DNA of 64,000 bases. It comes from a virus. Shown in pieces: positions 15,584 to 45,644 of the stretch (within the stretch, counting starts at the first letter, position 1; every line of letters begins with the position of its first letter). The notes below the pieces were generated by a model. That model made no database searches. It saw nothing but the letters and a program-made list of their open reading frames with translations, and was not told the DNA's origin. The position numbers and the translations under genes are program-made. The stretch is from the IMG/VR virus record IMGVR_UViG_3300035698_017294, positions 1 to 64,000 of that record; one strand, given 5' to 3'.

Positions 15584-16045
15584 ATGTTAAAGATAAGAAC
15601 GAATCTAGACATGATAGATCGTTTTGATGCTACGGTTCGATCTGGCGCAGGTAATGATTTACTGGCTAGTGGTTACCAAGGTGTGTGGGCTGTTCCGTCA
15701 GCAAATGGGTTCGATTTACCCACGTCTGTTGGAACCCATCCTGCCTACATGGTATGGACCGAAGGTAATTACAATCCCACTACAGGTGTCGAGTCAATTG
15801 GCTTTACACCCGATGCGACACAGACAACTAAGCTAACTTTCTTGGCCGGTAAATTCCGTATTTTAACAAATATGTTTGAAGATACCCCAACGCCTACAGT
15901 AGGATCTCCTATGTGCGTTAACGCAACGACAGGTAAGTTAATTCAGATAACCGATGATGGTAACGCGTTTGCTAGTGGCGTGGTTGCACACGTCATGACT
16001 GCCGAAGACGCAACAACCGGTTATCTTGAAATTCAAACATTCTAA
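15584..16045 (+). CDS. putative capsid decoration/cement protein
   Basis: Beta-rich 153-aa protein directly upstream of the MCP, GGAGG RBS. Confidence 0.55.
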   Translation: MLKIRTNLDMIDRFDATVRSGAGNDLLASGYQGVWAVPSANGFDLPTSVGTHPAYMVWTEGNYNPTTGVESIGFTPDATQTTKLTFLAGKFRILTNMFEDTPTPTVGSPMCVNATTGKLIQITDDGNAFASGVVAHVMTAEDATTGYLEIQTF

Positions 16046-16062
16046 CAGGAGGTACTAAGAAT

Positions 16063-16989
16063 ATGTCTTATGATGTTGATCCTAAAGCCCTGACAGAACT
16101 CTTCATTGAGAAGATGGGCACAGACATGGAGAAGACAGCAGCTGAGGCTGGTGCCTTCGTGCGTATGAGATTGCGCGAGCTTTCCTTCATGCGTAAAATC
16201 ATGAACCCTACGTACGTTACTGCGGCTGACTGCCAGCGTTCCGTGCTACATGACCAATTGGTCAAAATCGTTGATAAGGAGCCTGATTCAACTGCGTACA
16301 CTATGAACTTCCGTGGCAAAGCTAACGCTACCTACGTGAAGGGTGAACGCTATGAAATTTCTTTCTTCTTAGTGGGATCGGAAGATTTCCAGAAGACTGA
16401 GGAAGAGCTCCTAGCATACGAGATGCCTATTACAGATGTTATTGAAAAGAACTCTGTTAAAGACATTCAAAAAGTTGAAGATACTGTATTTATCCAAACC
16501 ATTTCTGGAATATGTGATGACAATTCTAAGAGTAGAAGCCTGGCAACAGGAATCTCTGGAATTACCAATCCTATTCCTCAGCTGGTTTTCCGTACCGGAT
16601 TCAATTTACTTGAATCCGTAAGTGGAAATGACCCATTGTATACTGACTTGATTCTTATGAACCAAGCTGATTACAATAAACTTATTGAGTGGAATAGTAC
16701 TCAGATCGGTGATCAAATCGCGACTGAGATTACTACTAATGGTTTCACTTACCCAACTCTGTTCGGTAAGAAAGTTATCACCACAATTAAGGGTGCATTG
16801 GTTCCTGAGAATACACTGTATTTCTTTGCACCAAAAGAGTACTTGGGTCACGCCTACATTCTAGGTGATACAAAGTTCTGGATCGAAAAGAGAAAGAATC
16901 TTGTGACTTGGGGTGCTTACGAGCATATCGGTGTAGGTATCGGTAACAACAACGGTGTTGCTAGAGTTACATACAGCGTTTTATCATAA
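16063..16989 (+). CDS. major capsid protein (HK97-like)
   Basis: 308 aa, AGGAGG RBS, followed by a terminator. RLRELSFMRKI and C-terminal YEHIGVGIGN fit the HK97-fold pattern. Confidence 0.8.
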   Translation: MSYDVDPKALTELFIEKMGTDMEKTAAEAGAFVRMRLRELSFMRKIMNPTYVTAADCQRSVLHDQLVKIVDKEPDSTAYTMNFRGKANATYVKGERYEISFFLVGSEDFQKTEEELLAYEMPITDVIEKNSVKDIQKVEDTVFIQTISGICDDNSKSRSLATGISGITNPIPQLVFRTGFNLLESVSGNDPLYTDLILMNQADYNKLIEWNSTQIGDQIATEITTNGFTYPTLFGKKVITTIKGALVPENTLYFFAPKEYLGHAYILGDTKFWIEKRKNLVTWGAYEHIGVGIGNNNGVARVTYSVLS

Positions 16990-17034
16990 TCACCCGACCC
17001 TGTCGGTTTATTATACATTCACTCCCTTTTCCTG

Positions 17035-17068
17035 CCCTCGAGCTTCAACCACTCGGGGGTTTTTATTT
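17035..17068 (+). terminator. intrinsic terminator after the capsid gene
   Basis: CCCTCGAG...CTCGGGGG stem followed by TTTTTATTT. Confidence 0.7.
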
Positions 17069-17081
17069 GGGGGGGGGGGGT

Positions 17082-17285
17082 AAAAAAGGAACCAAAGGTT
17101 CCTTTCAATGCTAAGAAGCTGCAGCCAACCTTCTTTCCTTTTCACCTCCCTCATGAAGAGGTGGCCAATTTTCTACGGAGTGTGCTTTAAGGTGGGAGGA
17201 ATATGCCCACCAAAGTAGCTATCTGGCACTACCCAGCCGCAGAGTACCAAACATCACGAATCGAGCCCTCGGAAGCGCTTACTTT
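17082..17285 (-). ncRNA. candidate structured non-coding RNA antisense to the capsid operon
   Basis: ORF-free stretch with hairpins (GGTGGG/CCCACC, CACCTC/GAGGTG). Ends in AAAGGAACC/GGTTCCTTT plus a U-tract on the - strand. Confidence 0.3.
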
Positions 17286-17301
17286 ACTTATGCCTTAATT
17301 C

Positions 17302-17330
17302 TTGACATTTCTTTTTATATTTTATATACT
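17302..17330 (+). promoter_or_regulatory. sigma70-type promoter
   Basis: TTGACA-N17-TATACT. Confidence 0.75.
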
Positions 17331-17420
17331 ATAGTGGTACTGTGGTTTTCATGGTTGCCTCCTTTCGGTTAGAGAGTGCTCGGAGTGAGCGCTCTCTTTC
17401 TATTTAAGAAAGAAAGTTTT

Positions 17421-17762
17421 ATGGAAGTTGTCGATCGTCCCTGGGGTTACTTCTTAGTTTTAGACGAGGATAAAGACTCCAAGACCAAAAAAATAGTTGT
17501 GCACCCCAACCAACGTTTAAGTTTACAGCGCCACTGTAAGCGAGACGAGCACTGGTTCATTACACACGGCTTAGCCGTGGTAACGATGAACGATGCTGCC
17601 CTTAACCTAAAGAAGGGCCAACAGGTAACCATTCCTAGGATGGTACGACATAGGGTGCATAACACAGGAACGGAAGACCTGGTCTTTATTGAGATACAGA
17701 CTGGTGATTACTTCGGGGAAGACGACATTGAGAGATTTGAAGATGATTATGAAAGGGAATGA
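17421..17762 (+). CDS. type II mannose-6-phosphate isomerase C-terminal cupin domain protein
   Basis: RPWG...LSLQRH..RDEHW...HRVHN...EIQTGDYFGEDDIERFEDDY. Confidence 0.85.
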   Translation: MEVVDRPWGYFLVLDEDKDSKTKKIVVHPNQRLSLQRHCKRDEHWFITHGLAVVTMNDAALNLKKGQQVTIPRMVRHRVHNTGTEDLVFIEIQTGDYFGEDDIERFEDDYERE

Positions 17763-18148
17763 GAATGGGTTATTCATACGGACCAATTGACTGGGATAGT
17801 GATGGAAGGGTTAATTGGAATCAAGCAGGTGAAGAGCACCCGCCACCATACGGCGTAAGGAACGAATGCAATAGAACTGAAAATGATGAGTTCTACTATT
17901 TCTGGATCCCGGCCCCAGGCGCCATTAAGGATAAAATAAAAATTACGGTTGCGGACAATACTATTACAGTTATAGCAAATATTGACTACCCGTGGGGTAC
18001 TAAGAGAACTATAGCAATGGACATTGATATTCCCACCAACGGTGACAGCGATAAGATCAATTCAATCATGCACAATGGCTTGCTGGAGATCAATATACAA
18101 AAGACTAAAGAACCAAGATCAGTGCCTATTGAGATTAAAGTAACTTAA
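17759..18148 (+). CDS. Hsp20/alpha-crystallin small heat-shock protein
   Basis: PG..KDKIKITV.DN.ITV...P...D.DKI.S.MHNGLLEI.I.K. Confidence 0.75.
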   Translation: MRMGYSYGPIDWDSDGRVNWNQAGEEHPPPYGVRNECNRTENDEFYYFWIPAPGAIKDKIKITVADNTITVIANIDYPWGTKRTIAMDIDIPTNGDSDKINSIMHNGLLEINIQKTKEPRSVPIEIKVT

Positions 18149-18170
18149 ATCCGCTAAAACCGCTATCCGA

Positions 18171-18199
18171 TTGACTTTAACCCCTGTCTGTATTATACT
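18171..18199 (+). promoter_or_regulatory. sigma70-type promoter embedded in an inverted repeat
   Basis: TTGACT-N17-TATACT, flanked by TAACCCCTGT (18178-18187) and ACAGGGGTTA (18216-18225). Confidence 0.7.
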
Positions 18200-18230
18200 T
18201 TAGGTATAGTTCAACACAGGGGTTATTTAT

Positions 18231-18701
18231 ATGGCTATATCTACAGCTAATCAAGCCTACGTCGATAGATTGCGAAACTGGCTAGGTGACATGGCGGATC
18301 TTAACGTACTCACAGGGGTACAAGAAAGCTCCGATGTATTTCTATATGAAGCGCTAGAAGATGCTATTGATGAGGTAAACAACGAATGGGGCTTTGAGTC
18401 TACATACACTATGGGCACATTTCCTAACTTCAGTTTATTGAAGTATGGTGCAGCATGCCAGGTACTAATGGGTAAAGGAATCCTATCGGCGCGTAACACG
18501 CTTACCTACAGGGATGCTGGCGGGGTCCAGGTTTCAGATCTGGATAAGTATCAGCGCTACATGCCTATATTCAACCAGTTACTACAGAAGTGGACCGCAG
18601 GGGTGCGTGGCATGATTCGCAGAATCAATGTTGATGGTGCCTACGGTGGCGTCGGTACAGAGATGGATCAGAATACATTTGATGGTGATCTGTGGTACTA
18701 A
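18231..18701 (+). CDS. head-tail adaptor/connector protein
   Basis: Helical 156-aa protein (RLRNWLGD...ALEDAIDE) downstream of the MCP. Confidence 0.55.
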   Translation: MAISTANQAYVDRLRNWLGDMADLNVLTGVQESSDVFLYEALEDAIDEVNNEWGFESTYTMGTFPNFSLLKYGAACQVLMGKGILSARNTLTYRDAGGVQVSDLDKYQRYMPIFNQLLQKWTAGVRGMIRRINVDGAYGGVGTEMDQNTFDGDLWY

Positions 18702-19480
18702 TAGAAGACCTAACCGTATATGCGGCGGGCGTAAATTCTGTCTACCTAACGTTTACCCCGACGCCGCTTAATGGTGAGACATTGAGCTTGTATCGTATAG
18801 CTATACAGCGAAGTGAGGTTAACACCGACAATACTGATGTGTGGTCAACGGTGGATATTGTAACAGCTGATAACACAGACTACACCGATATATCCCTATC
18901 GGGATTTAACTACAACAAGTTCAGAGATTTGTGGTACCGAGCCCGAGCATACCAAGCATCAATTCCAAACAATGTATCACCTTTGTGTGACAAAAAATCT
19001 ATTGCATATGATCCAGATCTATACGCGTTGGAGATTATAAGGCAGCAAACCTTAGCCCTTCAACCAAGATATGCAGGACAAAATATTTGCGTGTTACGTA
19101 AACGTAGCACAACAGATAGATGTGATACATGTTGGGATGCTGTGTTACAGAGAGTAAACGACCCAGACTGCTCAGACTGCTATGGCACTGGGTTTACGAC
19201 CGGTTACTATGCCTCGATAAGTGGGCTAGCTACTATATCGGCCGATTCTAAGAATAAACAGATAAACCAATTCGGCGCATTTGAGGAATCTAATAAAGTG
19301 TTACATATGGGGCCATTCCCTTTTATATACCCACAAGATATTATTGAAGATCAGTTTGGCCGTAGGTGGAGAGTTAACCAAGTAAACACAGAAGAGAAAA
19401 ACGGTCAGAAGATTAATCAATCCGCACAGATAGCAGAGATTGATAGAGAAGATATTATTTACACGATAGAGATTCCATAA
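18692..19480 (+). CDS. neck/head-closure protein with FN3-like N-terminus and Zn-finger
   Basis: WYRARAY FN3-like strand, RCDTCWD...CSDCYGTGF. Confidence 0.55.
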   Translation: MVLIEDLTVYAAGVNSVYLTFTPTPLNGETLSLYRIAIQRSEVNTDNTDVWSTVDIVTADNTDYTDISLSGFNYNKFRDLWYRARAYQASIPNNVSPLCDKKSIAYDPDLYALEIIRQQTLALQPRYAGQNICVLRKRSTTDRCDTCWDAVLQRVNDPDCSDCYGTGFTTGYYASISGLATISADSKNKQINQFGAFEESNKVLHMGPFPFIYPQDIIEDQFGRRWRVNQVNTEEKNGQKINQSAQIAEIDREDIIYTIEIP

Positions 19481-21058
19481 ATGGCAATTCTTGAAGTACC
19501 ATCAGCCCATGCTACAATTGTAGCCGCGCAGATAGCTGCAACCGACGGCGACATTATCAATGTAGCTGCTGGGGCATATACCGAAACCAGTGCTATTGGT
19601 TATGTATCTGGTAAATCATTAACTGTTCGCGGAGATTCCGGCAGCGAAAGGACAGAGGTTATAATTCGGGCAACTCCGGGCAACGCTTATGGATTCCGTC
19701 CAATGTCGTCTGGTAAGACCTTAACGCTGGAAAACTTGACGATAGAAATAGATCATACCCAGTCCCCAGTTTGGGCATGCATATTTGCTGCAGCTGATAC
19801 CAATATAAGTTTGAGCAATGTGTGGGTTAGAATTATTGACCAAGGCGCTTCGCAGTATATTATCCGCTCAGATTCTGGTTCGTTGATTACAGCAGTGAAC
19901 TGTAAGATAAGCTCAGAGTGCGGGCTTGTGAATTTATGGAAGAGATTCTTACAGACTACTATGACGTGGGACACCTGCGACTTCTATGATATAAGATTTT
20001 GGTCCTATAGCAATGGGGGCGCTAATACAAATCTAGCGGGCGAGCACCATTTTGTAGATTGTACGTTCAGCCGCGTAACAGAGACAACAGGGGTAATTTA
20101 CATACACTTCCACGACGGAACTGCCGCTAAGGAAGCAATTACATGTACCAATACTTCGTTTTACGGCATTGAAGGAAAAGAAACATATCAGAGCGGATTT
20201 TACAGAAATGATGTAACTGTAGATAACGATGTAATAACAGGATGCTTTTTCCAACATCTAGCCATTGCAATTACCATTGCAGATTATAGTGGCGCGGAGG
20301 GAACTGCCGAGAATGTACGTATCACAAATAATACTATAGAGGATTGTGAAAACGTAGGCGTATCGTGTGGTACACTTAGGCCTGTTATACAAGGAAATTC
20401 ATTTTACCACACTTCGACGTTTACCCCAACCGAACAATTCCATGCTATCCTTCCAGGTTCAAATGCAAGAGCGCACTTTACCAACAAGCAAGGAAAAGGA
20501 TCTATTATTACTGGGAACTATGCAGACATCAAAAGTGGGTATCTGCTAGTAGACAAAGGTGATGATATTCTATTTTTCGGGAATTATGGTATACTAAGAG
20601 GCGATGCTGGAGCGGTGTTTTACATCAAAGGTGGAAATGGCGGCCAATATCGTGGCAATGTATGCGTATCTAATCAACGATTACTTACTGTCGCAACGTG
20701 GGTTGGGCATACACCAGAAGACTGGGTTGTAGAGGACAATTTATTTGTAACCGAAGGCGGTGATTACATTGTATCTGATGTTGACGGTGTTGACATGTCA
20801 CAAGGTACTATAGGTAATAACAGGTATAAAGGAACACCTGCGGTTGCCTTTTATAACGATAGCGGTATAGCCAGAGACTGGAGCTGGTGGCAGGCTAACA
20901 CAAATGATTCTACTAGTACCTATCCTGATACTGATGCATGGACGGACGAAGGTAGAGAAAAGCTTTTAATTCATTCATTTACTTCGGGGAAGCCGTACTT
21001 TCCGCAGATGCGCATAGGGTCAGCTGGTTCTTGGAGCGGCGATGGCTGGAGAAAATAG
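19481..21058 (+). CDS. right-handed beta-helix (pectin-lyase-like) fibre/spike protein
   Basis: TIVAA...A.DGD.I.V.AG.Y.E cap, with repeated ITNN/IQGN/ITGN/VEDN Asn ladders. Confidence 0.7.
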   Translation: MAILEVPSAHATIVAAQIAATDGDIINVAAGAYTETSAIGYVSGKSLTVRGDSGSERTEVIIRATPGNAYGFRPMSSGKTLTLENLTIEIDHTQSPVWACIFAAADTNISLSNVWVRIIDQGASQYIIRSDSGSLITAVNCKISSECGLVNLWKRFLQTTMTWDTCDFYDIRFWSYSNGGANTNLAGEHHFVDCTFSRVTETTGVIYIHFHDGTAAKEAITCTNTSFYGIEGKETYQSGFYRNDVTVDNDVITGCFFQHLAIAITIADYSGAEGTAENVRITNNTIEDCENVGVSCGTLRPVIQGNSFYHTSTFTPTEQFHAILPGSNARAHFTNKQGKGSIITGNYADIKSGYLLVDKGDDILFFGNYGILRGDAGAVFYIKGGNGGQYRGNVCVSNQRLLTVATWVGHTPEDWVVEDNLFVTEGGDYIVSDVDGVDMSQGTIGNNRYKGTPAVAFYNDSGIARDWSWWQANTNDSTSTYPDTDAWTDEGREKLLIHSFTSGKPYFPQMRIGSAGSWSGDGWRK

Positions 21059-21081
21059 TATGATAGTTATTAGGAGATATT

Positions 21082-21795
21082 TTGTCTAGATATACTTATG
21101 GAGAATATGGAACTATAGGCGGGTCCTTCACCACAGGTGATACAGTTACAGTTACTGTATATGACCTTTCTACAGAAAGTTCAGTTTCTTTATCTATACC
21201 ATCCGCGTCAGAGATTGGTGCAACTGGAGAATTTTATTGGAGTTTTTCTAATCTTACAACTGCTCCTACTGTTTTTACTGAGTACTTAGCTGTAATGACT
21301 AATGGTACAGTGTCTCACAGTTTCCAGCACACGATAGGCGGGTATCCAAACGATCTAGCATCTTCCATTGCTCTTATATCTGGGGTTCTCGATACTCCAG
21401 CAAACTTCATGGCTGATGTTTCAGCATTAGCTACTCCAGCAAACTTCATGGCAGATGTCACGGCTCTTGCAGGATCTGGGGTTCTAGGTGAAGTAAAAGC
21501 AAAGACAGACTTGATTCCACTTAACCCGACTTCTGTAAATGAATACGCAGCGCGGTTAGCCACACTTCAAACTGATGTGTCAGCGACAGCTACCGAAGCA
21601 ACAGTATCTGGAATGAATGTTACAGTATCTGGAATGGATAGTTTCATAACAGATGTCCATGACGAGGTAATGGGTAAGTGGGTTGTAGATACGGCAGCTA
21701 ATACACTAACCTTATACCGTATAGATGGTGATACCGTATTAGAGACGTTTGACCTAACAGGTACTAGTCCATCTTACACAGGCAGAACACCATAA
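21082..21795 (+). CDS. virion structural protein with internal repeats
   Basis: TTG start after AGGAG. Thr/Ser-rich, with repeats TPANFMADV x2 and TVSGM x2. Confidence 0.6.
   Translation: MSRYTYGEYGTIGGSFTTGDTVTVTVYDLSTESSVSLSIPSASEIGATGEFYWSFSNLTTAPTVFTEYLAVMTNGTVSHSFQHTIGGYPNDLASSIALISGVLDTPANFMADVSALATPANFMADVTALAGSGVLGEVKAKTDLIPLNPTSVNEYAARLATLQTDVSATATEATVSGMNVTVSGMDSFITDVHDEVMGKWVVDTAANTLTLYRIDGDTVLETFDLTGTSPSYTGRTP
21394..21471 (+). repeat. 39-bp in-frame tandem repeat (2 copies)
   Basis: ACTCCAGCAAACTTCATGGC begins at both 21394 and 21433, encoding TPANFMADV[S/T]ALA. Confidence 0.85.
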
Positions 21796-21989
21796 TGATA
21801 ATCACACGCGGCTATGGTGCAAACTTCTCTATCGTGACACAAGGATATGCTGGTACAACGCAAAAAATAATAAGGGTGCCGTCACCGCTGCATAGAAAGC
21901 TAGGATACGCCTCATCTATAGTGCAAACCATTTCAGAAGAGTCGTCACCAAATAGGGCTTTATTTTTATCTTCATCTTTAAACGCATAG
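21795..21989 (+). CDS. small virion protein
   Basis: IITRGYG / IVTQGYA repeat, coupled start. Confidence 0.5.
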   Translation: MIITRGYGANFSIVTQGYAGTTQKIIRVPSPLHRKLGYASSIVQTISEESSPNRALFLSSSLNA

Positions 21990-22014
21990 ATGTAGACTTC
22001 GAAGGAGACTTGAG

Positions 22015-22299
22015 TTGAGCAAAACATATGTAGGAGATGTCGGCACTATAATAATTGTCGATATAGGCGAGAGTGTCTCTGCGGCAACCTATACAGCGCT
22101 AAAGGTGCGTAAGCCGGGCGCTGATACAGAGTATATATGGTCCGGCGAAGTATACAATACAAACTACGTTAAGTACACTACCGTAGATGGGGATTTCAGT
22201 ATAGCTGGCCAGTATCACGTTCAGCCGCATATCATAACATCGACCTGGGATGGTCTGGGTGAAACAATCACACTAACTGTATTTGATCCATTCGAGTAA
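22015..22299 (+). CDS. small Ig-like (BppU N-terminal-like) virion protein
   Basis: YVGDVGT...VRKP...VKYTT.DGDF..AG.Y.VQ pattern. Confidence 0.5.
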   Translation: MSKTYVGDVGTIIIVDIGESVSAATYTALKVRKPGADTEYIWSGEVYNTNYVKYTTVDGDFSIAGQYHVQPHIITSTWDGLGETITLTVFDPFE

Positions 22300-22308
22300 A
22301 GGTAACAC

Positions 22309-23013
22309 ATGAGTCTATTTGATCCAATTAAACCATATCTTTGTCCGGATATTTTCAACAAACAGAATAAGCTTCGGCCGTATGTACGGCTGGTCATAAC
22401 GACCGGCGTTGAACTGCTTGTACCGAAGGAACATGTTGGAGGCATCTATATACGCGGATCTGTTATCGATTACAAGTGGAGCTACACATCCGATGTGGAT
22501 GTTAATATTCTACTGAAGCCCGAGCACGCAGATAGGCGGGCAGAGTTCCACTCAATGGTAAAAGGATCCAATGGTAAGACGTTCATCAAGAAGCATCCTA
22601 TAAACTACTTTATAGATATTATGCCAGATGAATGGAACATGCTACATCTGCGCAGGCTGTACGACGTTACAAATAATAAATGGGTTGCTACTCCAGACAG
22701 AACAAAAGCTATTACACGTAAGAAGGCACTAGAGCTAGCATCGCCAGTGGCTCCAATAGCGGCAACAAATGCTGAGCTGCAAATTGAGCAATTGGCTAAA
22801 GCCATTAGATCTGGAGACATGGACCGTATACTACACGAGGCAAAAGACGTAACACAATTCTATAAAATACTTGACCGCAAGCGAAAACGTGGCTATGCTC
22901 TAGGAGCGGGAACCTACTCTCACCAGAATGCGCTATACAAGTATGTAGAACATGAGGGTAAGTACCCAGACACGCTTGGAAAGATATACGAACTACTTAG
23001 AGATAGAGTGTAA
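22309..23013 (+). CDS. Pol-beta-superfamily nucleotidyltransferase
   Basis: RGSVIDYKWSYTSDVDVNI (GS...DxD signature). Confidence 0.7.
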   Translation: MSLFDPIKPYLCPDIFNKQNKLRPYVRLVITTGVELLVPKEHVGGIYIRGSVIDYKWSYTSDVDVNILLKPEHADRRAEFHSMVKGSNGKTFIKKHPINYFIDIMPDEWNMLHLRRLYDVTNNKWVATPDRTKAITRKKALELASPVAPIAATNAELQIEQLAKAIRSGDMDRILHEAKDVTQFYKILDRKRKRGYALGAGTYSHQNALYKYVEHEGKYPDTLGKIYELLRDRV

Positions 23014-24395
23014 TGTCAGCAGACGCAGTAATAGAACGATATAAAAGATCGCCTGCCGGATTACTAGTGGTACGCCCAACCGGCAGCGGAAAAACTAGGC
23101 TTGCATTAAAGGCGACCAGAGAAGACAAACGTAACACGGTTGTTGGCACTGCTTCCCTAACCAAGAACTTTGAGGGCGAAGAGAAAAAGGTCTTTAAGGC
23201 TACTACGCCGAGAAAGGTTACAACTTACTCTAGTGTAGCACGAGGCAATGAGCTACCAGGCGGTAATAATCTGATTCTAGACGAGTCACATTATATCCGT
23301 AACCCAAAAACGCGAACTGCAAAGATGCTAACCCAGGAGCGTAAAAAGTACAACAAGGCCCTACTACTTACAGCGACTCCTATAGTAAATGAGCCGTATG
23401 ACTTAGCAAGCCAGGTAAACTTGGTTGCTAATCGCGAAGTAATGCCGGCGGATAAGAAAGAATTCTATAGCAAGTATTACGATTCCAAGAATGTCAAACC
23501 GGGCTTCTTTGGGAGAATGCTAGGGGTTAAGCCAGGTGCCGTAAGGGAACTTAAAAAAAGAACTGATCTAGAAGACACTGTATCACAATTTGTTGACATT
23601 GCAGATAAAAAAGAAGTTGCCGAATTCATGCCAAAGACTAAGCATGAGGTAGTCAACGTTCCTATGGCCGAGGACCAATCAAAGATCTATAAGTATCTGG
23701 AGGGTAAAATGCCCTTCCATGTGCGATACAAAATAAAGAAAGGCCTGCCACCATCTAAGTCTGAGAGCGCGAATCTAAACGCATACATGACTGGTCTACG
23801 CCAAGTATCTAACACAACAGCACCTTACGTAAAAGAAGGTGTACAGCCGGTTAGCTCTAAGCTAGACCAAATGGTTAAAGACATGCGGGCCGAGTTGGCA
23901 AATAAGGGTAAAGTGATAACCTACTCCAATTTCCTAGGTGCCGGCTCAACTCGTATCAAGGCTCGACTAGACAAGAAGAATATACAGTACAGCGAAATAC
24001 ACGGGTCGTTGACTAAGAAGCAGCGTGCGGCCGAGGTAGAGAAATATACCTCTAACAAGTCCAACGTCATGTTGTTTAGCGGCGCTGGTTCTGAGGGATT
24101 GAACCTGCCTAAGACTACAATGGTCCAGATCACAGAACCGCATTGGAATGAGGCACGCGTCTATCAGGCGGCATCGCGAGGAGTTCGTCGAGGAGATGAT
24201 CCTAATCGTACAGTCAACATTAGACATTATTTATCGACTCGGCCGGAATCAAAATTAAACAGACTGGGCTTTGGTAAGCCGAAAAAGTCGGCTGATCAAT
24301 ATCTATATGAAATGAGTAAGCGCAAAAAAGAAGAATCTGATTCCATGCTGCGCGCGCTACGGGGAAAAAGTGATGCTAAGAGAACTAGGGTTTGA
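23013..24395 (+). CDS. SNF2-like superfamily 2 helicase
   Basis: PTGSGKT, ILDESH, LLTATP, GSEGLNL, QAASRGVR. Confidence 0.85.
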   Translation: MSADAVIERYKRSPAGLLVVRPTGSGKTRLALKATREDKRNTVVGTASLTKNFEGEEKKVFKATTPRKVTTYSSVARGNELPGGNNLILDESHYIRNPKTRTAKMLTQERKKYNKALLLTATPIVNEPYDLASQVNLVANREVMPADKKEFYSKYYDSKNVKPGFFGRMLGVKPGAVRELKKRTDLEDTVSQFVDIADKKEVAEFMPKTKHEVVNVPMAEDQSKIYKYLEGKMPFHVRYKIKKGLPPSKSESANLNAYMTGLRQVSNTTAPYVKEGVQPVSSKLDQMVKDMRAELANKGKVITYSNFLGAGSTRIKARLDKKNIQYSEIHGSLTKKQRAAEVEKYTSNKSNVMLFSGAGSEGLNLPKTTMVQITEPHWNEARVYQAASRGVRRGDDPNRTVNIRHYLSTRPESKLNRLGFGKPKKSADQYLYEMSKRKKEESDSMLRALRGKSDAKRTRV

Positions 24396-24660
24396 GAAGA
24401 CTGCCAAGAAGAAAAGCGAATTCAAGGTATTGCAGGAGAACAAAGTCCCGCTGACTCCAGAAGAGCGGGCTAAGGTAATGGGCAGTAAGGCAGTTTGGCA
24501 TTTTAACGGGGGTTCCCCTAGTCCGGCTGTATGGAAGTCGGTTAACAAGCAAACTGGTAAAACGACTTTTGTGACACATACGCACAGAGCATATAACACA
24601 GCTCCTACAGTGCAGGGTGGCATAGGTCGCTTTCACAAGTTTATCAAAGGCACAGCATAA
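24373..24660 (+). CDS. small basic protein with LGF-EKTA leader
   Basis: N-terminus MLRELGFEKTA. Confidence 0.6.
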   Translation: MLRELGFEKTAKKKSEFKVLQENKVPLTPEERAKVMGSKAVWHFNGGSPSPAVWKSVNKQTGKTTFVTHTHRAYNTAPTVQGGIGRFHKFIKGTA

Positions 24661-26024
24661 TGGCAGAGTTTGCCCCAGGTCTTCCTAACAAGAAGATAAC
24701 TACACCAGTCCCATCCACACGTTACCAAACGTGGGAGTATTCCATACAAAGGCACGATGCTGTTAAAGCTGGATTACATTATGACCTGCGCTTAGGCAGC
24801 GGGACATCGGGCGTAGCACATTCTTGGGTTATTAAAAGTATACCGCGGCCCGGGCAGAAGGTACTAGCGATTGAGCAGCCGGATCATACGCTGGAATACA
24901 TGCGTTATTCTGGAAGACTCAAATCAGGGTATGGTATGGGCCAGGTACAGGTAGTGGAAAGCGCCAATGCCGAAATGTTGGAATCCTCATCTGATAAGCT
25001 TGTATTCAATATTTATAAGGGCGCCGATACACATCGATTTGCACTTATAAGAACTGGTGGCAAGAATTGGTTGTTTTACAATACCACTAATACGCGCGAC
25101 CGTGTTAAGATACCATCTACCAAGAGGAGTTATAAAACCGTTAGTGTGGACGCATTGGATCCAAATAAACCGGATACGCTGTGGTCGCCTAAGGTAGACG
25201 GTGCGCACAATATTTTTTACCTTAAAAAGGGTCGTCGTCCTGAGATATTTTCATATCGCACATCTAAGCGCGACAGTAATAAACTGATAGAGCACACATA
25301 TAAAACGGAGCTGTATAAGGAGCGTGTTCCAAATGAGATAGGTGAGACGATATTACGAGGGGAACTATACGGGGTTGATAATGTAGGCAAGGTAGTATCC
25401 AGCGCGACAACCGCCGGCATACTGAATTCAAATGTTTGGCTATCCCGTAATTCTGCGGGAAAAGTTGGGGGATCCGAAAAATCGCTAGGGCGAAAGGTCC
25501 GGATCGACCATGTCATATTTGACATAGATCGCTATAAAGGCAAAGATGTCAGTGACTTGCCGTATAGTCAGAAGCTGTTGCTAATGAGAGAGGTGAGCAG
25601 ACAAATGCCATCTATCAAATTAGCTCCAATGGTATCCAGCCCAGATAAGAAAATTCACATGCTCAAGTCTATTAAAGAGGGCAATCATCCTTTAAGTAAA
25701 GAAGGTATTGTTGAAATTGACTTAAACAAGTCGATTCCTACAAAGGCCAAACTGAAAAAGGAGATTGATGTTTACGTTACTATGGTTTTTCCTGGAGGAG
25801 GAAAGTACGGTGGAAGCGCAGCCGGTGGCTTTTTGGCTTCACGGACCCAAGGAGGCCCAGCAAGTATTAGAGTTGGTTCAGGATTCTCCGATGCTGAGCG
25901 TATTAAAATGTGGAATAATCGCAAACGCTACATCGGCAGATTTGCAAAAATTGAGATTCAAGAAGAACTTCCGTCAGGAAAAGTACGTAGCCCAGTCTTT
26001 AAAGAATGGCGTTCGTACATTTAA
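24660..26024 (+). CDS. LigD-like 3'-phosphoesterase fused to an ATP-dependent DNA ligase
   Basis: PE motifs QRHDA...HYDLRL...SW. Ligase motifs KVDG, LRGELY, IFDI, EGIV. OB domain VGSGFSD...RSPVF. Confidence 0.8.
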   Translation: MAEFAPGLPNKKITTPVPSTRYQTWEYSIQRHDAVKAGLHYDLRLGSGTSGVAHSWVIKSIPRPGQKVLAIEQPDHTLEYMRYSGRLKSGYGMGQVQVVESANAEMLESSSDKLVFNIYKGADTHRFALIRTGGKNWLFYNTTNTRDRVKIPSTKRSYKTVSVDALDPNKPDTLWSPKVDGAHNIFYLKKGRRPEIFSYRTSKRDSNKLIEHTYKTELYKERVPNEIGETILRGELYGVDNVGKVVSSATTAGILNSNVWLSRNSAGKVGGSEKSLGRKVRIDHVIFDIDRYKGKDVSDLPYSQKLLLMREVSRQMPSIKLAPMVSSPDKKIHMLKSIKEGNHPLSKEGIVEIDLNKSIPTKAKLKKEIDVYVTMVFPGGGKYGGSAAGGFLASRTQGGPASIRVGSGFSDAERIKMWNNRKRYIGRFAKIEIQEELPSGKVRSPVFKEWRSYI

Positions 26025-26027
26025 TGC

Positions 26028-26055
26028 TTGACAAAGTGCAGTAAATTAGTATACT
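26028..26055 (+). promoter_or_regulatory. sigma70-type promoter for the tail operon
   Basis: TTGACA-N16-TATACT. Confidence 0.75.
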
Positions 26056-26067
26056 TAACAAGTAGAG

Positions 26068-27174
26068 GTGCAATCAGTGAGCGTGCTGATCGATGTTAAA
26101 CATATAGTTCTGTCTTTCTTACAGACTTACTTCGAAAACAAGAGCACTACGCACCCTTGGTCTTCGACATATGCCCAAACCAAGATTATTATAGCGGACA
26201 AGTTCGCTGTGGATCTGAAGTCTATAGAAAAGAAACCGGCTATAATTCTCTCTCGCGGACAGGCGAGATGGACCAAGTTGGTTATGGACCAACGTGCCAC
26301 AACCGATATAGTTGGCAAAGATAAAACGTATACGGATCTTGTTCGTATGTCATTGACACTAAACATTATAGGAAAGAATGGTATAGTCCTAGAGGACATA
26401 GCCAGTACACTTTTCAATATATTTGTGGGACATAAGGATATTCTAAAAGCGGCCGGAATTGATACAATTGACGCAATAGAGATTGGACAAGAACAAGTTA
26501 TACAGTCTGATTCTGAAATTAATTTGGTTAGAGTACCAGTATCAATGGTAGTTACAATTGCCAAAACATTGGCATCGTATACCGATTCTACTTTTGCAAC
26601 TATCCTTGTTTCTGGCACTACGACTCAGGTTAGAGAAGGCGAAGATTATCACATTGTTGGCCAATCCGTAATAATGGAGGACGCTGACGATCAAGATAAT
26701 TTCTCTATAACTTATCTGGATAATACAGATTATACTTCGCATACAGAATATCTGACAATGGAAGATCATGCGATGTATCTTCCGCTAACATTTAACGCGT
26801 ATGCGCCATCAGGAATTTCTGTTAAAGCGCTAAACGCGATGACGAATGTAGAATACCCGATAGATGCTGTGTATATTAGTGGCTTAGTTCCTGTTGGTGA
26901 TGAAATTGTAACAGTGCGCGTAAGCGGAATGTATTACGAATCACTACCTAGCGGAATAACAACGAGCGACATATCGGATGCTTTTAAGACGACTTATTAC
27001 CTAGATGCTCGTACACCCGTGCATCGATACATATTAATGCGTTCCGGATTAGTCGATTATACAGACTATGGTGTATACGGAGATTACCTTGCAGGTAATT
27101 GGGCATACGATCCTGACGAGACACTTTCTACATATCCATATGTTAGTGGTGTTCTAGGAGTTATAAATGAATAA
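26068..27174 (+). CDS. tail terminator/completion-like protein with Ser-Gly-rich C-terminal extension
   Basis: Directly upstream of the sheath. KPAIILSRG motif, and 7 SG dipeptides all in the C-terminal half. Confidence 0.55.
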   Translation: MQSVSVLIDVKHIVLSFLQTYFENKSTTHPWSSTYAQTKIIIADKFAVDLKSIEKKPAIILSRGQARWTKLVMDQRATTDIVGKDKTYTDLVRMSLTLNIIGKNGIVLEDIASTLFNIFVGHKDILKAAGIDTIDAIEIGQEQVIQSDSEINLVRVPVSMVVTIAKTLASYTDSTFATILVSGTTTQVREGEDYHIVGQSVIMEDADDQDNFSITYLDNTDYTSHTEYLTMEDHAMYLPLTFNAYAPSGISVKALNAMTNVEYPIDAVYISGLVPVGDEIVTVRVSGMYYESLPSGITTSDISDAFKTTYYLDARTPVHRYILMRSGLVDYTDYGVYGDYLAGNWAYDPDETLSTYPYVSGVLGVINE

Positions 27175-27195
27175 AATTACAATAGGAGACTTATA

Positions 27196-28830
27196 ATGAC
27201 TTATGTGAAACCCGGTGTTGAAATCACCCAGGTTCAGAAAACCGTCTCCCCAAACTTAGGGGCTCCCTCCTTACCTGCGGCCATTATAGGTCCTGGCTAC
27301 TATATAAGCCATATTGTGGAAAACCCAGAATCGGCTTACATGCATGATGGCTTACCAATAGCCGGTGTTGACGGGGAAGAAACAGTAGAGATCGGGTTAG
27401 CCGGGCTCATGAATAGCGGTTTAACTACTATGCCTTCGGGAATAGGTAGCCCAGGTGCGATATATGCTGGTGTTTATGCAACAAGTAGCACCGAATCCAC
27501 TTATGCTCAAACCATGATACCGATGATTTCAGGTGTCACGTGTGAGGGAATGTGGTATAATGCCGGTGCAGAGGTTTTAACTATTTCCGGTATATCGTCT
27601 TCGATAACTTCTGGTTTACTATACTTCGGCTTCAGATCATTGCGCGATGACCAAGCTGGGGATGTTATTGAATATGACAGTGCGGACAAAATTGAATACA
27701 AGTTGGGCGCTATAACGGTTTTCAATCCCCTGGCCAAAGCGATCTACTTAGCTATGCAATCAGCTGGTGCGTCGGTCTATGGATTTGCAATTAGTGGACT
27801 TGATCTATACTCTGGAGCAATTGGTACTGGCACTGGTAAGCTTGAAAACAAAGAAGTTTACACCCTTGTACCACTTACACAGGATGCAACTTATACAGAT
27901 GCGGTTGAATTACATTGTAGTACAATGTCTAGCGCAACTAATAAAAAAGAACGTATCATGGTCTACAGTCACCACACTACATACAATGCAGATGCTGCGG
28001 TTTGGTCTGCTGCTATAAAAAATTACGCAGGCTCAGTAATGAATAAGCGTTCCATCCATGTATGGCCAACTGTGGCATACATACGCGAGCGTCTATTTAG
28101 TGCTCAGTATAAACCGAGTTACATAACAGCAAACATGCTGCCGAATCCGTATACTACTGAAACGGCTATGATAACAACCAACGCTAAGCTGACTGGCAAC
28201 CTTACACTTTCAAGTGGTGCTAAATACTACGAAGGTGATGAAATTACTGAAACGATATGGACTGCTATTTATTTAGAATTCCCATTCTTAACAGTAGATG
28301 TTCCAGTTCCTGGATGGTATGCTGCAGCTATCGTAGCTGGCCAAATTGCCGGACAGAACCCAGAGCAAAGTTTAACAAACTTGCCTATAGCTGGACTAAG
28401 TAAGCTAAGGTATGTTAGTGACACATTCTCTGAGACCCAGCTAAACACTATCGGCGGCGGTGGTAACTACCTAATGTGGCAGGCAACTCCTGCATCTAGG
28501 ATAGTATGTCGTCACCAGTTATCTACCAATGTGATGAGTGTTGAGACCAAGGAACTTAGTATCACAAAGACAATTGACTATGTGGCTAAGTTTGTTCGTA
28601 ACCAACTACTGCCATTCGTAGGCAGATGGAATATCGATACTAATCTGATTAAGATTGTGTCATCTCATATGCGCGCTATTGGCGACTATTTGAAAAATAA
28701 TGGAACAGTTGAAGATTTTGTAGTTGAGAAGGTAGAGCAAGATGCTAGCCAAAAAGATGTTCTGAATCTTACTATCAACGTGAAGCCCTTGTATCCAGCT
28801 AACTACATTAAAGTTACTTTAACTTTCTAA
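27196..28830 (+). CDS. contractile tail sheath protein
   Basis: N-terminal YVKPGVEI and C-terminal V.P.YPANYIKVTL, typical of sheath proteins. Confidence 0.85.
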   Translation: MTYVKPGVEITQVQKTVSPNLGAPSLPAAIIGPGYYISHIVENPESAYMHDGLPIAGVDGEETVEIGLAGLMNSGLTTMPSGIGSPGAIYAGVYATSSTESTYAQTMIPMISGVTCEGMWYNAGAEVLTISGISSSITSGLLYFGFRSLRDDQAGDVIEYDSADKIEYKLGAITVFNPLAKAIYLAMQSAGASVYGFAISGLDLYSGAIGTGTGKLENKEVYTLVPLTQDATYTDAVELHCSTMSSATNKKERIMVYSHHTTYNADAAVWSAAIKNYAGSVMNKRSIHVWPTVAYIRERLFSAQYKPSYITANMLPNPYTTETAMITTNAKLTGNLTLSSGAKYYEGDEITETIWTAIYLEFPFLTVDVPVPGWYAAAIVAGQIAGQNPEQSLTNLPIAGLSKLRYVSDTFSETQLNTIGGGGNYLMWQATPASRIVCRHQLSTNVMSVETKELSITKTIDYVAKFVRNQLLPFVGRWNIDTNLIKIVSSHMRAIGDYLKNNGTVEDFVVEKVEQDASQKDVLNLTINVKPLYPANYIKVTLTF

Positions 28831-28845: not shown

Positions 28846-29487
28846 ATGTCTCAAAACGTAACTGAGTGGACATCCAACTTCACTGCAAAACACGTAGACG
28901 ATAATGTCAATGACGGGGAATTTATTTCCGGTGAGTCTATTGTCATTGCCGCACTGAACCAGGTGACTGGCAGTATCGACCAGGATCAATTCGCCATGAA
29001 CCCTGCTAACTATACGGCTATAGGGCTTTTGGAAACTGGATCAGTTCGACAAGATAAGCAGATTCAGCAGCTATTCGAAATCGGATCTGCACTACCATAT
29101 TTCGTACCGGGCCATACAATGATATCAATGGCGCTAAACCGCGTCATGTTTAACGGGGAATCCCTGTTGAAGGTTATCTATGGTGATAAAGGTGCGGGTA
29201 GTATTGTTCCTAGTCCAGGCCCATCATTCGAGATTGGCACCCGCGATGATCCACGGCAAGCTGATTTCTATATTAACCTTGCGTCAACTTTCTTTAACTC
29301 TCCAACTACTATCGGAATTTTCATGTGTGACAATTCTGGAGACTTTGTCGGTGGGTTTGGTTTGGCAGGATGCTATGTACAAAGCCATGTTATGGCATTT
29401 AGCAGCCGTCAAGTGGTTATCGCGGAGAACGTATCGATAAGAGCTACCAAAATGCTCGGATTCGCAACTGCGGAATCAAGCGAATAG
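28846..29487 (+). CDS. tail tube protein
   Basis: Follows the sheath. QQLFEIGS...Y..PG motif. Confidence 0.75.
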   Translation: MSQNVTEWTSNFTAKHVDDNVNDGEFISGESIVIAALNQVTGSIDQDQFAMNPANYTAIGLLETGSVRQDKQIQQLFEIGSALPYFVPGHTMISMALNRVMFNGESLLKVIYGDKGAGSIVPSPGPSFEIGTRDDPRQADFYINLASTFFNSPTTIGIFMCDNSGDFVGGFGLAGCYVQSHVMAFSSRQVVIAENVSIRATKMLGFATAESSE

Positions 29488-43430: not shown

Positions 43431-44051
43431 TTATCTTCTACCTATAATTCTAAGATACGGACATAGCCCGTCCTTGTGTGTATTCCTAGTTAGCTCTATC
43501 ACTTCAAGACCCAGTTTGTCGAAAATTGCTCGAAGCTTTCCCCCTGTGTATGCATTTCTGTGGAACTGTCCTTTACCATTCTGGTGTCCGAATAGAGTAG
43601 CAGTTAGGTAACCCCACCTACTGGTGAAGTCCTTTTTGTATTGCCCGAACCAATGCGCGTCATCACGAAATCCCACTTCATAAAAGTCTTGGAAATTCTC
43701 GTCAGCTTCTAACCATATCTTAATCTGTGCCTCGAAATCCGGAACAAAAATATTGACCGTACCACCCGGTGCTAGCAGTCTGCGGATTTCTAGGAATAAT
43801 TTCTTTTCTTCATCAAAAGATAAATGCTCTGCGACGGATTCGCACAATATTTCTGATGCGCAGGCATCTTTAAACGGTAGAGCAAATATGTCGTAATTGA
43901 AAACTGGGATTGATGGGTAAGATGTAGGATCCAATCCGTTCTGGGGAAGAATATCACTCTTCGAATCCATATCAATATTAATCCAATCGTCACCCAGTAT
44001 GTTTTTGCCACAACCTAAATGTAATTTCATCATGTTTTTAGCCGTTATCAC
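43431..44051 (-). CDS. class I SAM-dependent methyltransferase
   Basis: LHLGCG...WINID...LPF.D...EHL...RLLAPGG...VPD. Confidence 0.85.
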   Translation of the reverse strand: MITAKNMMKLHLGCGKNILGDDWINIDMDSKSDILPQNGLDPTSYPSIPVFNYDIFALPFKDACASEILCESVAEHLSFDEEKKLFLEIRRLLAPGGTVNIFVPDFEAQIKIWLEADENFQDFYEVGFRDDAHWFGQYKKDFTSRWGYLTATLFGHQNGKGQFHRNAYTGGKLRAIFDKLGLEVIELTRNTHKDGLCPYLRIIGRR

Positions 44052-44691
44052 CCTTTACAAACATTTTGTAATTTCTTTCCATCATTTGTCCATAACTAAC
44101 TTCGTGCTTTTCAATATCACTTATACCTGTTGCTTGGATTGCGGCAATTGGGTACATAGCGTATACATCAAATTTACGGGCTTGTGTGACATACCAATCG
44201 GTATATCGATCGATGGGCTGTTTAAAATTTTTTAAACCTTTAATCAAAAAATCGTACAGGGTAGACTTTATAGCATAAGCATGTAGTGCTTTTGCTGCTC
44301 TTGGAATTATTAAATTTGGGCTTGCCAAATTAGAATAATCGATAAGGTTACAACCGAAATATAGCATGTCCCAATCTTCTGGTAATTGTTCCATTGCTTT
44401 TGGTATTGTATCTTCCCACTCATTTGCTAGTTCGAAATCATCTTCGAATATTAAAACATTTTCGTAATTGTTTTCTTTTGCGTACTCATATATTTTACAG
44501 TGACTGTCCTTACAACCAACGGTTGGCTGTGTAGGATTGTCAATGCCTTCGAACTTTATTACTCTGTCTGCGATTCCCAATTTTTCAAATTCTTTACTTA
44601 CAGCTTCCCATCGTTCGGTCCGCCGCTTTAAGTTAATGCAAAAAATTTGACCAAATAGGTCTAATGCGTTTTTCATAATATTTTTATCCAA
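44038..44691 (-). CDS. glycosyltransferase family 25
   Basis: CINLKRRTERW, GC..SH, LIFEDD, WDMLYFG, HAY. Confidence 0.85.
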   Translation of the reverse strand: MDKNIMKNALDLFGQIFCINLKRRTERWEAVSKEFEKLGIADRVIKFEGIDNPTQPTVGCKDSHCKIYEYAKENNYENVLIFEDDFELANEWEDTIPKAMEQLPEDWDMLYFGCNLIDYSNLASPNLIIPRAAKALHAYAIKSTLYDFLIKGLKNFKQPIDRYTDWYVTQARKFDVYAMYPIAAIQATGISDIEKHEVSYGQMMERNYKMFVKGDNG

Positions 44692-45644
44692 TACTGAATC
44701 ATTTCGTCTAACATTGTCTCAAAGGTATAGACAGGCTTCCAACCTAATGTCGTTTTGGCCTTGCGCGAATCGCCCTTTAGTCGAGCAAGTTCTTCAGGGC
44801 GCAGGTACTTACTGTCGGTTTTTACATAGGTGCGATAGTCTAGCCCAAGCTTATCGAATACGTATTTGCATAGGTCTTGTACCGTGTGTGATACACCTGT
44901 AGCGCATACGAAGTCATTGGGCTGTTCTTGCTGAAGCATCATCCACATTGCTTTTACATAGTCTGAGGCGTGTCCCCAATCTCGAGCAGCGTCTAAATTT
45001 CCCAATGTGAGATGATCTAGGTGCCCCAGTTTGATTTCAACGGCACCTTTTACTACTTTGTTAGTAACAAAGTTTATTCCCCTTCTTGGAGATTCGTGAT
45101 TGAATAGTATACCATTGGATATGAACATGCCGTAAGCATTACGATAGTTTTTAGTTAAATGATAAGCATATAACTTAGCACAGCCATAAGGACTCACAGG
45201 TGACATTGGAGTAGTTTCTCGTTGGAATCCATCTGAGTCTATATTGTTCCCGAACATTTCTGAGGAACTAGCTTGATATATTTTTGCATGACGTACAGCA
45301 TGTCTAGAGGTTTCCAACAAGTTTAACGTACCAATAGCATTTACCTGGGAGGTGTAAATTGGCTCATCAAAACTTATTCGTACGTGTGATTGGGCACCAA
45401 GATTGTAAACTTCATCTGGCGAGTATTTACTAAATATACGCTCCAATGAAGAAGTGTCAAGCAGGTCCCCATACTCAAGGGTTATCTGATTCTGTAGGTG
45501 GTCAATCCGGATTGATTGGCTTTCCGGAACGCTGTTTCGGCGTATCATTCCGACTACTCGATATCCTTTAGATATAAGAAACTCGGCTAAGTATGAGCCA
45601 TCTTGACCGTTAATACCTGTTATTAGCGCAGTTTTTTTATCCAT
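44673..45644 (-). CDS. gmd: GDP-mannose 4,6-dehydratase
   Basis: ITGINGQDGSYLAE, AQSHV, YQASSSE, SPYGCAK, LFNHESPRRG, RDWGHA. Confidence 0.95.
   Translation of the reverse strand: MDKKTALITGINGQDGSYLAEFLISKGYRVVGMIRRNSVPESQSIRIDHLQNQITLEYGDLLDTSSLERIFSKYSPDEVYNLGAQSHVRISFDEPIYTSQVNAIGTLNLLETSRHAVRHAKIYQASSSEMFGNNIDSDGFQRETTPMSPVSPYGCAKLYAYHLTKNYRNAYGMFISNGILFNHESPRRGINFVTNKVVKGAVEIKLGHLDHLTLGNLDAARDWGHASDYVKAMWMMLQQEQPNDFVCATGVSHTVQDLCKYVFDKLGLDYRTYVKTDSKYLRPEELARLKGDSRKAKTTLGWKPVYTFETMLDEMIQYWIKIL

Follow-up and report, generated by a model that had tools for sequence, protein, structure and literature searches.

The window analysed here comprises the first 64 kb of IMGVR_UViG_3300035698_017294, a 106-kb viral record from IMG/VR estimated to be 56% complete. 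Up to 29.5 kb, its plus strand codes for the large terminase, head protease, major capsid protein (MCP), tail sheath and tail tube, as assigned by PHROG and Pfam, and a glycan-synthesis island is located further downstream on the minus strand (Table 1). An earlier note on this DNA had proposed that Ser-Gly (SG) dipeptides followed by a hydrophobic residue in the outer virion proteins are O-glycosylation sites. SG followed by I, L, V or M (SG[ILVM], called SG-aliphatic below) was found about five times above chance on outer tail, neck and fibre proteins of this large uncultured phage and its relatives, in the family branch with genes for sugar synthesis only, which makes it a good candidate for a putative sugar-attachment site of the virion. 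The motif itself is real, Ser-specific, directional and restricted to outer virion parts. No match was obtained when the region was compared with 50,697 phage records by megablast or when the sheath was used as a single-protein query in a scan of viral contigs.

To avoid a post-hoc bias, the virion set was defined by gene position only (13 open reading frames (ORFs), 3188 aa) and all patterns were scanned, with 1000 whole-protein shuffles and 1000 20-aa local shuffles used as controls; figures are given as observed vs. expected. SG ranked first among 400 dipeptides (41 vs. 18.4, z = 5.2, the next dipeptide reaching 3.1), and 41 occurrences were attained in none of the 1000 shuffles of either kind (expectation 18.3–18.9). 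SG with an aliphatic residue was likewise the first of 1600 patterns combining a dipeptide with a residue class (z = 7.6, next 4.0), being present 21 times against 4.3–4.5 expected, again a number reached in 0 of 1000 whole-protein or local shuffles. The extended form [IVP]SG[ILVM] occurred 15 times against 0.8 expected (0 of 1000 shuffles), with all 15 copies located between 16063 and 28830 and at most one elsewhere in the 106-kb record. In the non-virion proteins of the window phage SG was at expectation (110 vs. 108), as it was in the 731-aa non-virion protein used for comparison in the earlier note (2 vs. 2.2). The enrichment test proposed there thus gave a strong excess confined to the virion proteins.

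The signal was Ser- and Gly-specific as well as directional, since TG, AG, NG or SA followed by an aliphatic residue and the reversed GS and [ILVM]GS were all at expectation in the virion sets. The dipeptides NG and DG were at or below expectation. The Ser codons of the SG sites were a mixture of TCN and AGY, which points to a pattern selected at the protein level and rules out a word acting at the DNA level. Global or local composition was ruled out by the two kinds of shuffles. The choice of the motif by eye and post hoc, together with a few sites lying in internal repeats or paralogues, could still have indicated chance, composition, a shared repeated domain or a DNA-level word; these explanations were rejected, as SG came first in both scans in two genomes, its excess was repeated in nine further genomes and no shared domain was found (see below).

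The SG counts and contexts given in the earlier note were reproduced exactly: three in the putative decoration protein, three in the MCP (ISGI, ISGI, VSGN), four in the fibre-like protein (ISGV, GSGV, VSGM, VSGM), seven in the tail terminator, all at residues 182–360 with none N-terminal of these, and eight in the sheath, seven of them within residues 74–206. In single-protein tests SG-aliphatic was significant for the sheath (6 vs. 0.9), the fibre-like protein (4 vs. 0.5) and the terminator (6 vs. 0.5), whereas no significance was reached by the MCP (3 SG vs. 1.2) or the putative decoration protein (3 SG vs. 0.7). The latter owes its label to the earlier note and had no match in Pfam or PHROG. 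The tail tube, located under the sheath, contained 2 SG against 2.0 expected and no SG-aliphatic. The probable tail/fibre protein encoded upstream of the fibre-like protein had 10 SG against 4.3 expected, mostly in polar contexts (one SG-aliphatic), and no homologue in the close relative described below. For the preceding virion-module protein, a lookup in the ESM Atlas returned no name.

Table 1. Coordinates of virion and glycan-synthesis features in the window.
Feature	Position	Strand	Basis and remarks
Putative decoration protein, 153 aa	15584..16045	+	Upstream of MCP; 3 SG, 1 SG-aliphatic
Major capsid protein	16063..16989	+	phrog_2522, E = 6e-8; 3 SG
Virion-module protein	18692..19480	+	PHROG, phrog_2806; 2 SG
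Probable tail/fibre protein, 525 aa	19481..21058	+	Weak PHROG tail-protein match; specific to the window phage
Fibre-like protein, 237 aa	21082..21795	+	Homology to 1152-aa SG-rich protein of a relative; 4 SG
Tail terminator ('gateway'/gpU-like) with lineage-specific C-terminal extension	26068..27174	+	Foldseek
Tail sheath, 544 aa	27196..28830	+	PHROG tail sheath; Pfam Phage_sheath_1C, PF17482
Tail tube	28846..29487	+	Internal negative control
Glycan-synthesis island, ~16 kb	43431..59714	-	Pfam; NCBIfam matches all below curated cut-offs
Gmd (GDP-mannose 4,6-dehydratase), aminotransferase and epimerase/reductase	44673..47707	-	
NeuB	49049..49960		Pfam
Cytidylyltransferase	51751..52521		Pfam
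Maf/MptE-like protein, 265 aa	53929..54726	-	PF01973, 44.5 bits (cut-off 34.6)
GT2 glycosyltransferase	56296..56973	-	57% identity in G001; candidate first-sugar transferase
GT9-like (heptosyltransferase-like) protein, 274 aa	58890..59714	-	48% identity in G001

Sheath homologues were collected and then used to fetch 79 viral loci. The closest relative, G001, is a complete genome of 189 kb with terminal repeats whose sheath is 71% identical to that of the window phage; a second record represented the same phage. In the virion set of G001, SG was again the first of 400 dipeptides (239 vs. 103, z = 13.4, next 4.1), SG-aliphatic reached 116 against 23 expected (0 of 1000 shuffles) and SG[ILVM][VTI] 45 against 4.9. 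The signal was stronger in G001 because this genome includes the baseplate and fibre module missing from the record of the window. The SG-rich proteins of G001 comprised a baseplate-J wedge protein, two beta-helix spikes (1995 and 893 aa), a fibre of 1152 aa, an fn3-containing protein, a collagen-like fibre, the sheath and the terminator. The 1152-aa protein alone contained 24 SG (8.4 expected) and 16 SG-aliphatic (1.9 expected). The fibre-like protein of the window was homologous to both ends and to internal repeats of it, and some SG lay inside short internal repeats.

A BLAST comparison of all SG-rich proteins with each other revealed only orthologues and one pair of paralogues, with no common domain, and Pfam assigned differing folds, which excludes a single shared repeated domain as the source of the excess. 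The motif-rich proteins span at least six unrelated folds (sheath, terminator, baseplate J, beta-helix, fn3 and collagen fibre); PHROG left most tail-module proteins of the relative without annotation. The consensus consisted of an aliphatic residue at −3, T, V or A at −2, I, A or V at −1, SG, L, V or I at +1, V, T or I at +2 and Y or F at +3. From −3 to +4 around virion SG, D, E, K, R and Q were depleted and aliphatic residues enriched; around non-virion SG the next residue was K, D or N instead. A second, overlapping motif may exist in the relative, as T-G-x-T was 3.4-fold enriched in the virion set of G001 (34 vs. 10) and not in that of the window (3 vs. 2.6). Of the related patterns, SG.T was enriched in both phages and [S/T]GS in neither.

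In the sheath, six of the eight SG dipeptides are SG-aliphatic, and the stretch with seven of the eight is the region that is variable in the family alignment; six of the eight sites were kept in G001. The AlphaFold2 model of the sheath (pLDDT 77) was aligned by VIA-align with the sheath of phage 812 at Z = 28.3 (311 residues, root-mean-square deviation 3.0) and with the pyocin and diffocin sheaths at Z = 23–25. As about 300–312 residues align with such minimal two-domain sheaths, about 230 residues are additional, and the extra domains of solved sheaths point outward. In the model, S131 ends a strand, S139 starts one, S112 forms an isolated bridge, S200 follows a strand at a distance of two residues, S340 is placed in a short hairpin loop and S74, S81 and S206 are in low-confidence loops. 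The N-terminal domain of the terminator (about residues 1–170, pLDDT about 90) matched in Foldseek the neck proteins of PhiTE, Pa193, E217 and phage 812 and gpU of lambda (E = 6.5e-6 to 8e-4). The terminator gene is adjacent to and directly upstream of the sheath gene, an adjacency seen in 64 loci. Homologues share only the N-terminal part of the protein, and the C-terminal extension holds all seven SG, six of which are SG-aliphatic. In the terminator model, S182 comes immediately after a strand, S271 is within one, S286 and G287 make up a two-residue hairpin turn and the remaining sites are in low-confidence coil. The predicted sites were thus located in the variable insertion of the sheath and the extension of the terminator, at strand ends, in turns and in low-confidence loops, off the conserved cores, which is consistent with the surface positions expected in the earlier note. 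The MCP, whose family was not enriched in the relatives, and the putative decoration protein fit the pattern poorly.

The modelled positions could also be explained by a purely structural role, in which strand-Ser-Gly-strand is a tight turn or beta-arc of clade-specific beta-rich domains and fibres, no enzyme reads the motif and the island serves another target. The flanks resemble beta-strands, with aliphatic and beta-branched residues at −3, −1, +1 and +2, and the sites of the models fall at strand ends, at strand starts and in the hairpin turn of the terminator. However, other turn-forming equivalents (NG, DG, and TG, AG or NG with an aliphatic residue) showed no excess. In 29 virion proteins of T4 (13,308 aa), which are rich in beta-helices and fibres, SG was near expectation (85 vs. 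81, rank 126 of 400), as was SG-aliphatic (23 vs. 18). The spread over unrelated folds with no detectable common domain also speaks against this role, which we consider a serious possibility, albeit a rather doubtful one.

The sheath relatives were divided into a closer clade of full-length sheath relatives, with G001 excluded from the family counts, and a distant clade. In the closer clade SG-aliphatic was enriched in the sheath (64 vs. 22), the terminator (46 vs. 11) and the homologues of the virion-module protein (19 vs. 5, 3.6-fold), and not in the tube (6 vs. 11), the MCP (2 vs. 3) or polA (5 vs. 9). The same families in the distant clade gave 59 vs. 59, 3 vs. 7 and 1 vs. 7 for the sheath, the terminator and the virion-module protein, respectively. 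In nine further closer-clade genomes, whole or in part, virion homologues were enriched in every case (9/9, 164 vs. 71 in total), with non-virion homologues at 82 vs. 92 in the same comparison and virion homologues of the distant clade at 84 vs. 93. A generic property of myovirus virions was ruled out by the distant clade and by the T4 proteins.

Genes for PF01370 sugar-nucleotide epimerases/dehydratases were present in nine of the 10 closer-clade records tested and in none of 17 distant-clade records (ten of them complete), and GT2 and GT1 genes were split between the clades in the same way with few exceptions. The motif thus appears, on gene content, to accompany phage sugar islands at the level of the clade. 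The idea that homologues from phages without glycosyltransferase islands lack the SG sites was supported to this extent, the distant clade having neither the motif nor the sugar-nucleotide genes, but it was supported by one phylogenetic contrast.

The island of the window codes for a methyltransferase, GT25, Gmd, two DegT aminotransferases, an epimerase, NeuB, an SDR protein, a cytidylyltransferase, a B12 radical-SAM enzyme, the Maf/MptE-like protein, GT10, GT11, two GT2 enzymes, a volactin and the GT9-like protein. No flippase, polymerase or initiating transferase family was found among its Pfam and NCBIfam matches. The Gmd and epimerase genes are common to G001 and, judged from their families, may represent a conserved supply of GDP-6-deoxyhexose. 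The volactin-type actin homologue is full-length (57620–58627, minus strand; PF25216, E = 1e-72), and three related phage genomes code for homologues (40–43% identity) at other places. In G001 the genomic position of the island is occupied by a different glycan island (85.7–102.8 kb; L085 5699–20000 and L086 1–2791) with a phosphoenolpyruvate (PEP) mutase-cytidylyltransferase fusion, an iron-containing alcohol dehydrogenase, a glycerophosphotransferase-type protein (Glyphos_transf), GT8, a rhamnosyltransferase-like protein and a methyltransferase, a gene content that suggests a phosphonate-decorated glycan.

The Ser-specific signal would also be compatible with another Ser-directed modification, such as phosphorylation, nucleotidylation, acylation or addition of a phospho-sugar, by a different conserved phage enzyme. 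A candidate would be the product of 22309–23013, which is encoded among the virion genes and is 71% conserved in G001; the Glyphos_transf phosphotransferase and PEP mutase encoded in the island of G001 likewise fit such a modification. This explanation is considered improbable: a family search with the 22309–23013 product gave no assignment, no kinase or acyltransferase was seen, and the clade-wide trait co-occurring with the motif is the sugar islands.

Among the transferases of the island, only the GT2 enzyme at 56296–56973 and the GT9-like protein are conserved in G001. The GT9-like protein matched PF01075 with 34.3 bits (cut-off 22) over residues 115–234 only, and NCBIfam heptosyltransferase I with 32.7 bits, far under the cut-off of 185. 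Its gene was present in only three of 49 records, which excludes it as a clade-wide reader of the motif. The Maf/MptE-like protein, which aligned only to the last ~45 positions of the PF01973 profile, probably adds nonulosonic acid, as its family and neighbourhood suggest. PF01973 had no match in the complete G001 genome and matched in only two of 40 records. With its gene absent from the relative with the strongest motif, this enzyme was rejected as the motif reader and is more likely a capping enzyme.

A further candidate is a GT-B transferase (about 440 aa) that belongs to the core genes of the closer clade, being encoded in eight records with 38–44% identity, and was absent from 26 distant records. 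Of the closer-clade records with a completeness of 47% or more, all carry it apart from one and from the truncated record of the window itself. In G001 it is encoded at 170412–171782 on the minus strand (L089 10412–11782), and in three genomes it lies 6–12 kb from the SG-rich fibre module. G001 additionally codes at 185163–187718 (L090 5163–7718) for a protein of 851 aa in which GT2, GT8-like and GT1 domains are fused; two genomes of the distant clade, both without an SG excess, also code for similar transferases of large size and several domains.

To our knowledge, virion glycosylation has been shown chemically for few phages, e.g., mycobacteriophages, and we know of no acceptor sequon in them. 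The eukaryotic xylosyltransferase uses a Ser-Gly acceptor in proteoglycans, requires a small residue at +1 and acts at sites with acidic flanks. The analogy with this sequon drawn in the earlier note fails because the flanks in the window are aliphatic and depleted of charge, not acidic, and no GT14-type enzyme was seen. Maf flagellin glycosyltransferases transfer pseudaminic or legionaminic acid in O-linkage to Ser and Thr of a surface filament with no strict sequon. The window resembles such systems in having an MptE/DUF115-type protein encoded beside NeuB and the CMP-sugar synthetase, but this protein is short, there is no flagellin and the gene is missing from the relative with the stronger motif. 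Chlorovirus PBCV-1, a eukaryotic virus, attaches N-linked glycans to its capsid at atypical sites by a cytoplasmic, virus-encoded machinery. The GT-B transferase of the closer clade weakly matched its B736L protein (E = 0.0013); the GT-B gene lies outside the record of the window.

In mycobacteriophages, as summarised in PMC12619734 from Freeman et al. (2023, Cell Host Microbe), the subunits of capsid and tail tube bear glycans at their C-termini, and phage-encoded glycosyltransferases are proposed to modify the structural proteins within the cytoplasm, so that a glycan shield is formed. The window phage similarly encodes two GT2 enzymes, GT9-like, GT10, GT11, GT25 and Maf-like proteins according to Pfam. 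In contrast to the mycobacteriophage system, its candidate sites are internal and belong to the sheath, terminator, baseplate and fibres, no enrichment was seen for the families of the tube and the MCP, and its island contains nonulosonic-acid and fucosyl-type genes.

TibC and Aah, the bacterial autotransporter heptosyltransferases (BAHT), are cytoplasmic GT9-related enzymes that modify many Ser and not Thr residues in TibA and AIDA-I, with an N-S-G-G site in TibA (PMC4358343). The motif of the window is Ser-specific too, a resemblance in pattern only; a GT9-like gene is present and conserved in the close relative. The TibC enzyme is soluble, and its acceptor is a beta-rich, repetitive surface protein. 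The GT9-like protein of the window is nevertheless rejected as a member of the TibC/Aah family: it is shorter (274 vs. about 400 aa), it had no match at E ≤ 1 among PDB chains, TibC included, and it is devoid of the conserved four-Cys iron finger, the orthologues in the window and G001 having seven and four Cys at differing positions with no conserved four-Cys set. Other differences are the lack of heptose-nucleotide genes near it, the aliphatic flanks of the motif and the many acceptor proteins in place of one partner.

The explanation preferred, though tentatively and with slightly less than even confidence, is that hydrophobic-Ser-Gly-[I/L/V/M]-[V/T/I] is a selected Ser tag on outward virion parts and would act as the acceptor of a soluble phage-encoded O-glycosyltransferase. 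The tagged parts would be the sheath insertion, the C-terminal extension of the terminator and the fibre-like protein, and in G001 also the baseplate wedge, the beta-helix spikes and the fibres. In the cytoplasm, a conserved transferase, which may be the GT2 enzyme, the GT9-like protein or the GT-B transferase encoded outside the incomplete record, would put the first sugar on the Ser hydroxyl at a junction of beta-strand and loop, with the Gly giving room. The conserved Gmd/epimerase pair would provide GDP-6-deoxyhexose, and strain-variable genes of the islands would lengthen the glycan. In the window phage this could involve the GT10 and GT11 fucosyl-type transferases and nonulosonic acid added via NeuB, the CMP-transferase and the Maf-like enzyme; in G001 the result could be a phosphonate-bearing glycan. 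Tail, neck and fibres would thereby be sugar-coated, with a glycan differing among related phages. Counted in favour of this explanation were the first rank of SG in two genomes, the Ser-specific controls, the unrelated folds, the clade-level co-occurrence with sugar genes, the lack of excess in the tube, polA and T4, the hydrophobic and charge-depleted flanks, the GT-B transferase seen in the closer clade and in none of the 26 distant records, the turnover of sites at a maintained density, the soluble transferases without export or polymerase genes among the island matches, and the precedent of TibC. The broadest version, in which a clade-wide serine-only sequon, hydrophobic-S-G-[ILVM]-[VTI], is read by a soluble phage glycosyltransferase and coats sheath, neck, baseplate and fibres, with the outer glycan swapped between related phages, is regarded as possible and is proposed with greater reserve.

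Several observations weigh against the proposed glycan attachment to the SG serines. Between the window phage and G001, the Ser of SG was kept in 63% of cases vs. 51% for other Ser, and the stronger conservation that this might indicate was not significant (p = 0.16); the Gly of SG was kept in 76% vs. 80% for other Gly. Such a per-site conservation, no higher than that of other residues, favours a structural turn. Flanks as hydrophobic as these suggest strands that are buried in part. In the relative G020, a protein of 492 aa (92927–94405, minus strand; L154) consists of tandem units of about 23 aa with two SG each (like T-P-S-P-I-T-V-V-A-S-G-V-D-P) and contains 14 SG-aliphatic against 1.4 expected; the SG in these repeats and in the repeat unit of the 1152-aa fibre looks structural. 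SG-aliphatic was below expectation in the non-virion proteins of the window phage (15 vs. 27), but the avoidance was not a general trait, as the non-virion homologues of the relatives show, and was not used as evidence; the lack of a consistent depletion favours a structural turn. The motif and the sugar genes are linked by one contrast between clades, which have different insertion domains as well. Within the closer clade the motif strength varied from 1.2- to 2.4-fold genome-wide and tracked no single transferase gene.

The genes themselves raise further objections. The GT9-like gene adjoins a Thy1-like gene and may therefore have a role on DNA; phage transferases glycosylating DNA are known (e.g., 10.1101/2023.12.21.572611). 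G001 shares only Gmd, an epimerase, one GT2 and the GT9-like gene with the island of the window, and NeuB, the CMP-transferase and the Maf-like gene are absent from this holder of the strongest motif. A conserved transferase is thus the likelier motif reader, with the variable genes extending the glycan, and the role of decorating SG sites that the earlier note had ascribed to the 43–60 kb island was supported only in part, the island being more likely a variable extender than the reader. On the other side, several SG sites were gained or lost between the window phage and G001 at a maintained density, which would be expected of a coat and not of fixed structural positions. Such turnover speaks against a purely structural turn and fits, without being decisive, a selection for the number of sites over their fixed positions.

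If the glycosylation reading is true, the motif would represent the first O-glycosylation sequon to be defined in a bacterial virus, with the whole amounting to a system of virion 'serotypes'. It would explain the big, fast-changing glycan islands without export genes in large aquatic phages and point to glycan coats as a changeable layer that affects how stable phages are, how they adsorb and how they escape recognition by hosts or grazers. Should the motif be purely structural, it would still represent a rule by which this clade designs the beta-rich decoration domains of its virions. A short Ser-specific tag would make the acceptor question directly testable by combining candidate domains with candidate transferases.

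The genes for a helicase (phrog_62) and a ligase-type protein (22309–26024, plus strand) separate the head/fibre genes from those of the terminator and sheath; both are conserved in the relative with 70–73% identity. SG is also in excess in the ligase family, but in polar contexts. The large terminase (6463–9129, plus strand) has 888 aa vs. 516 aa in the close relative and the protease-containing protein (11110–13923, plus strand) 937 aa vs. 570 aa, the orthologues covering 58–62% of the window queries. Such a far greater length suggests inteins or other insertions in both proteins. The adjacent ORFs 31008–31499 and 31543–33363 on the minus strand both matched one polA-type ORF of 609 aa in the relative, indicating that the polA gene is split in the window phage.

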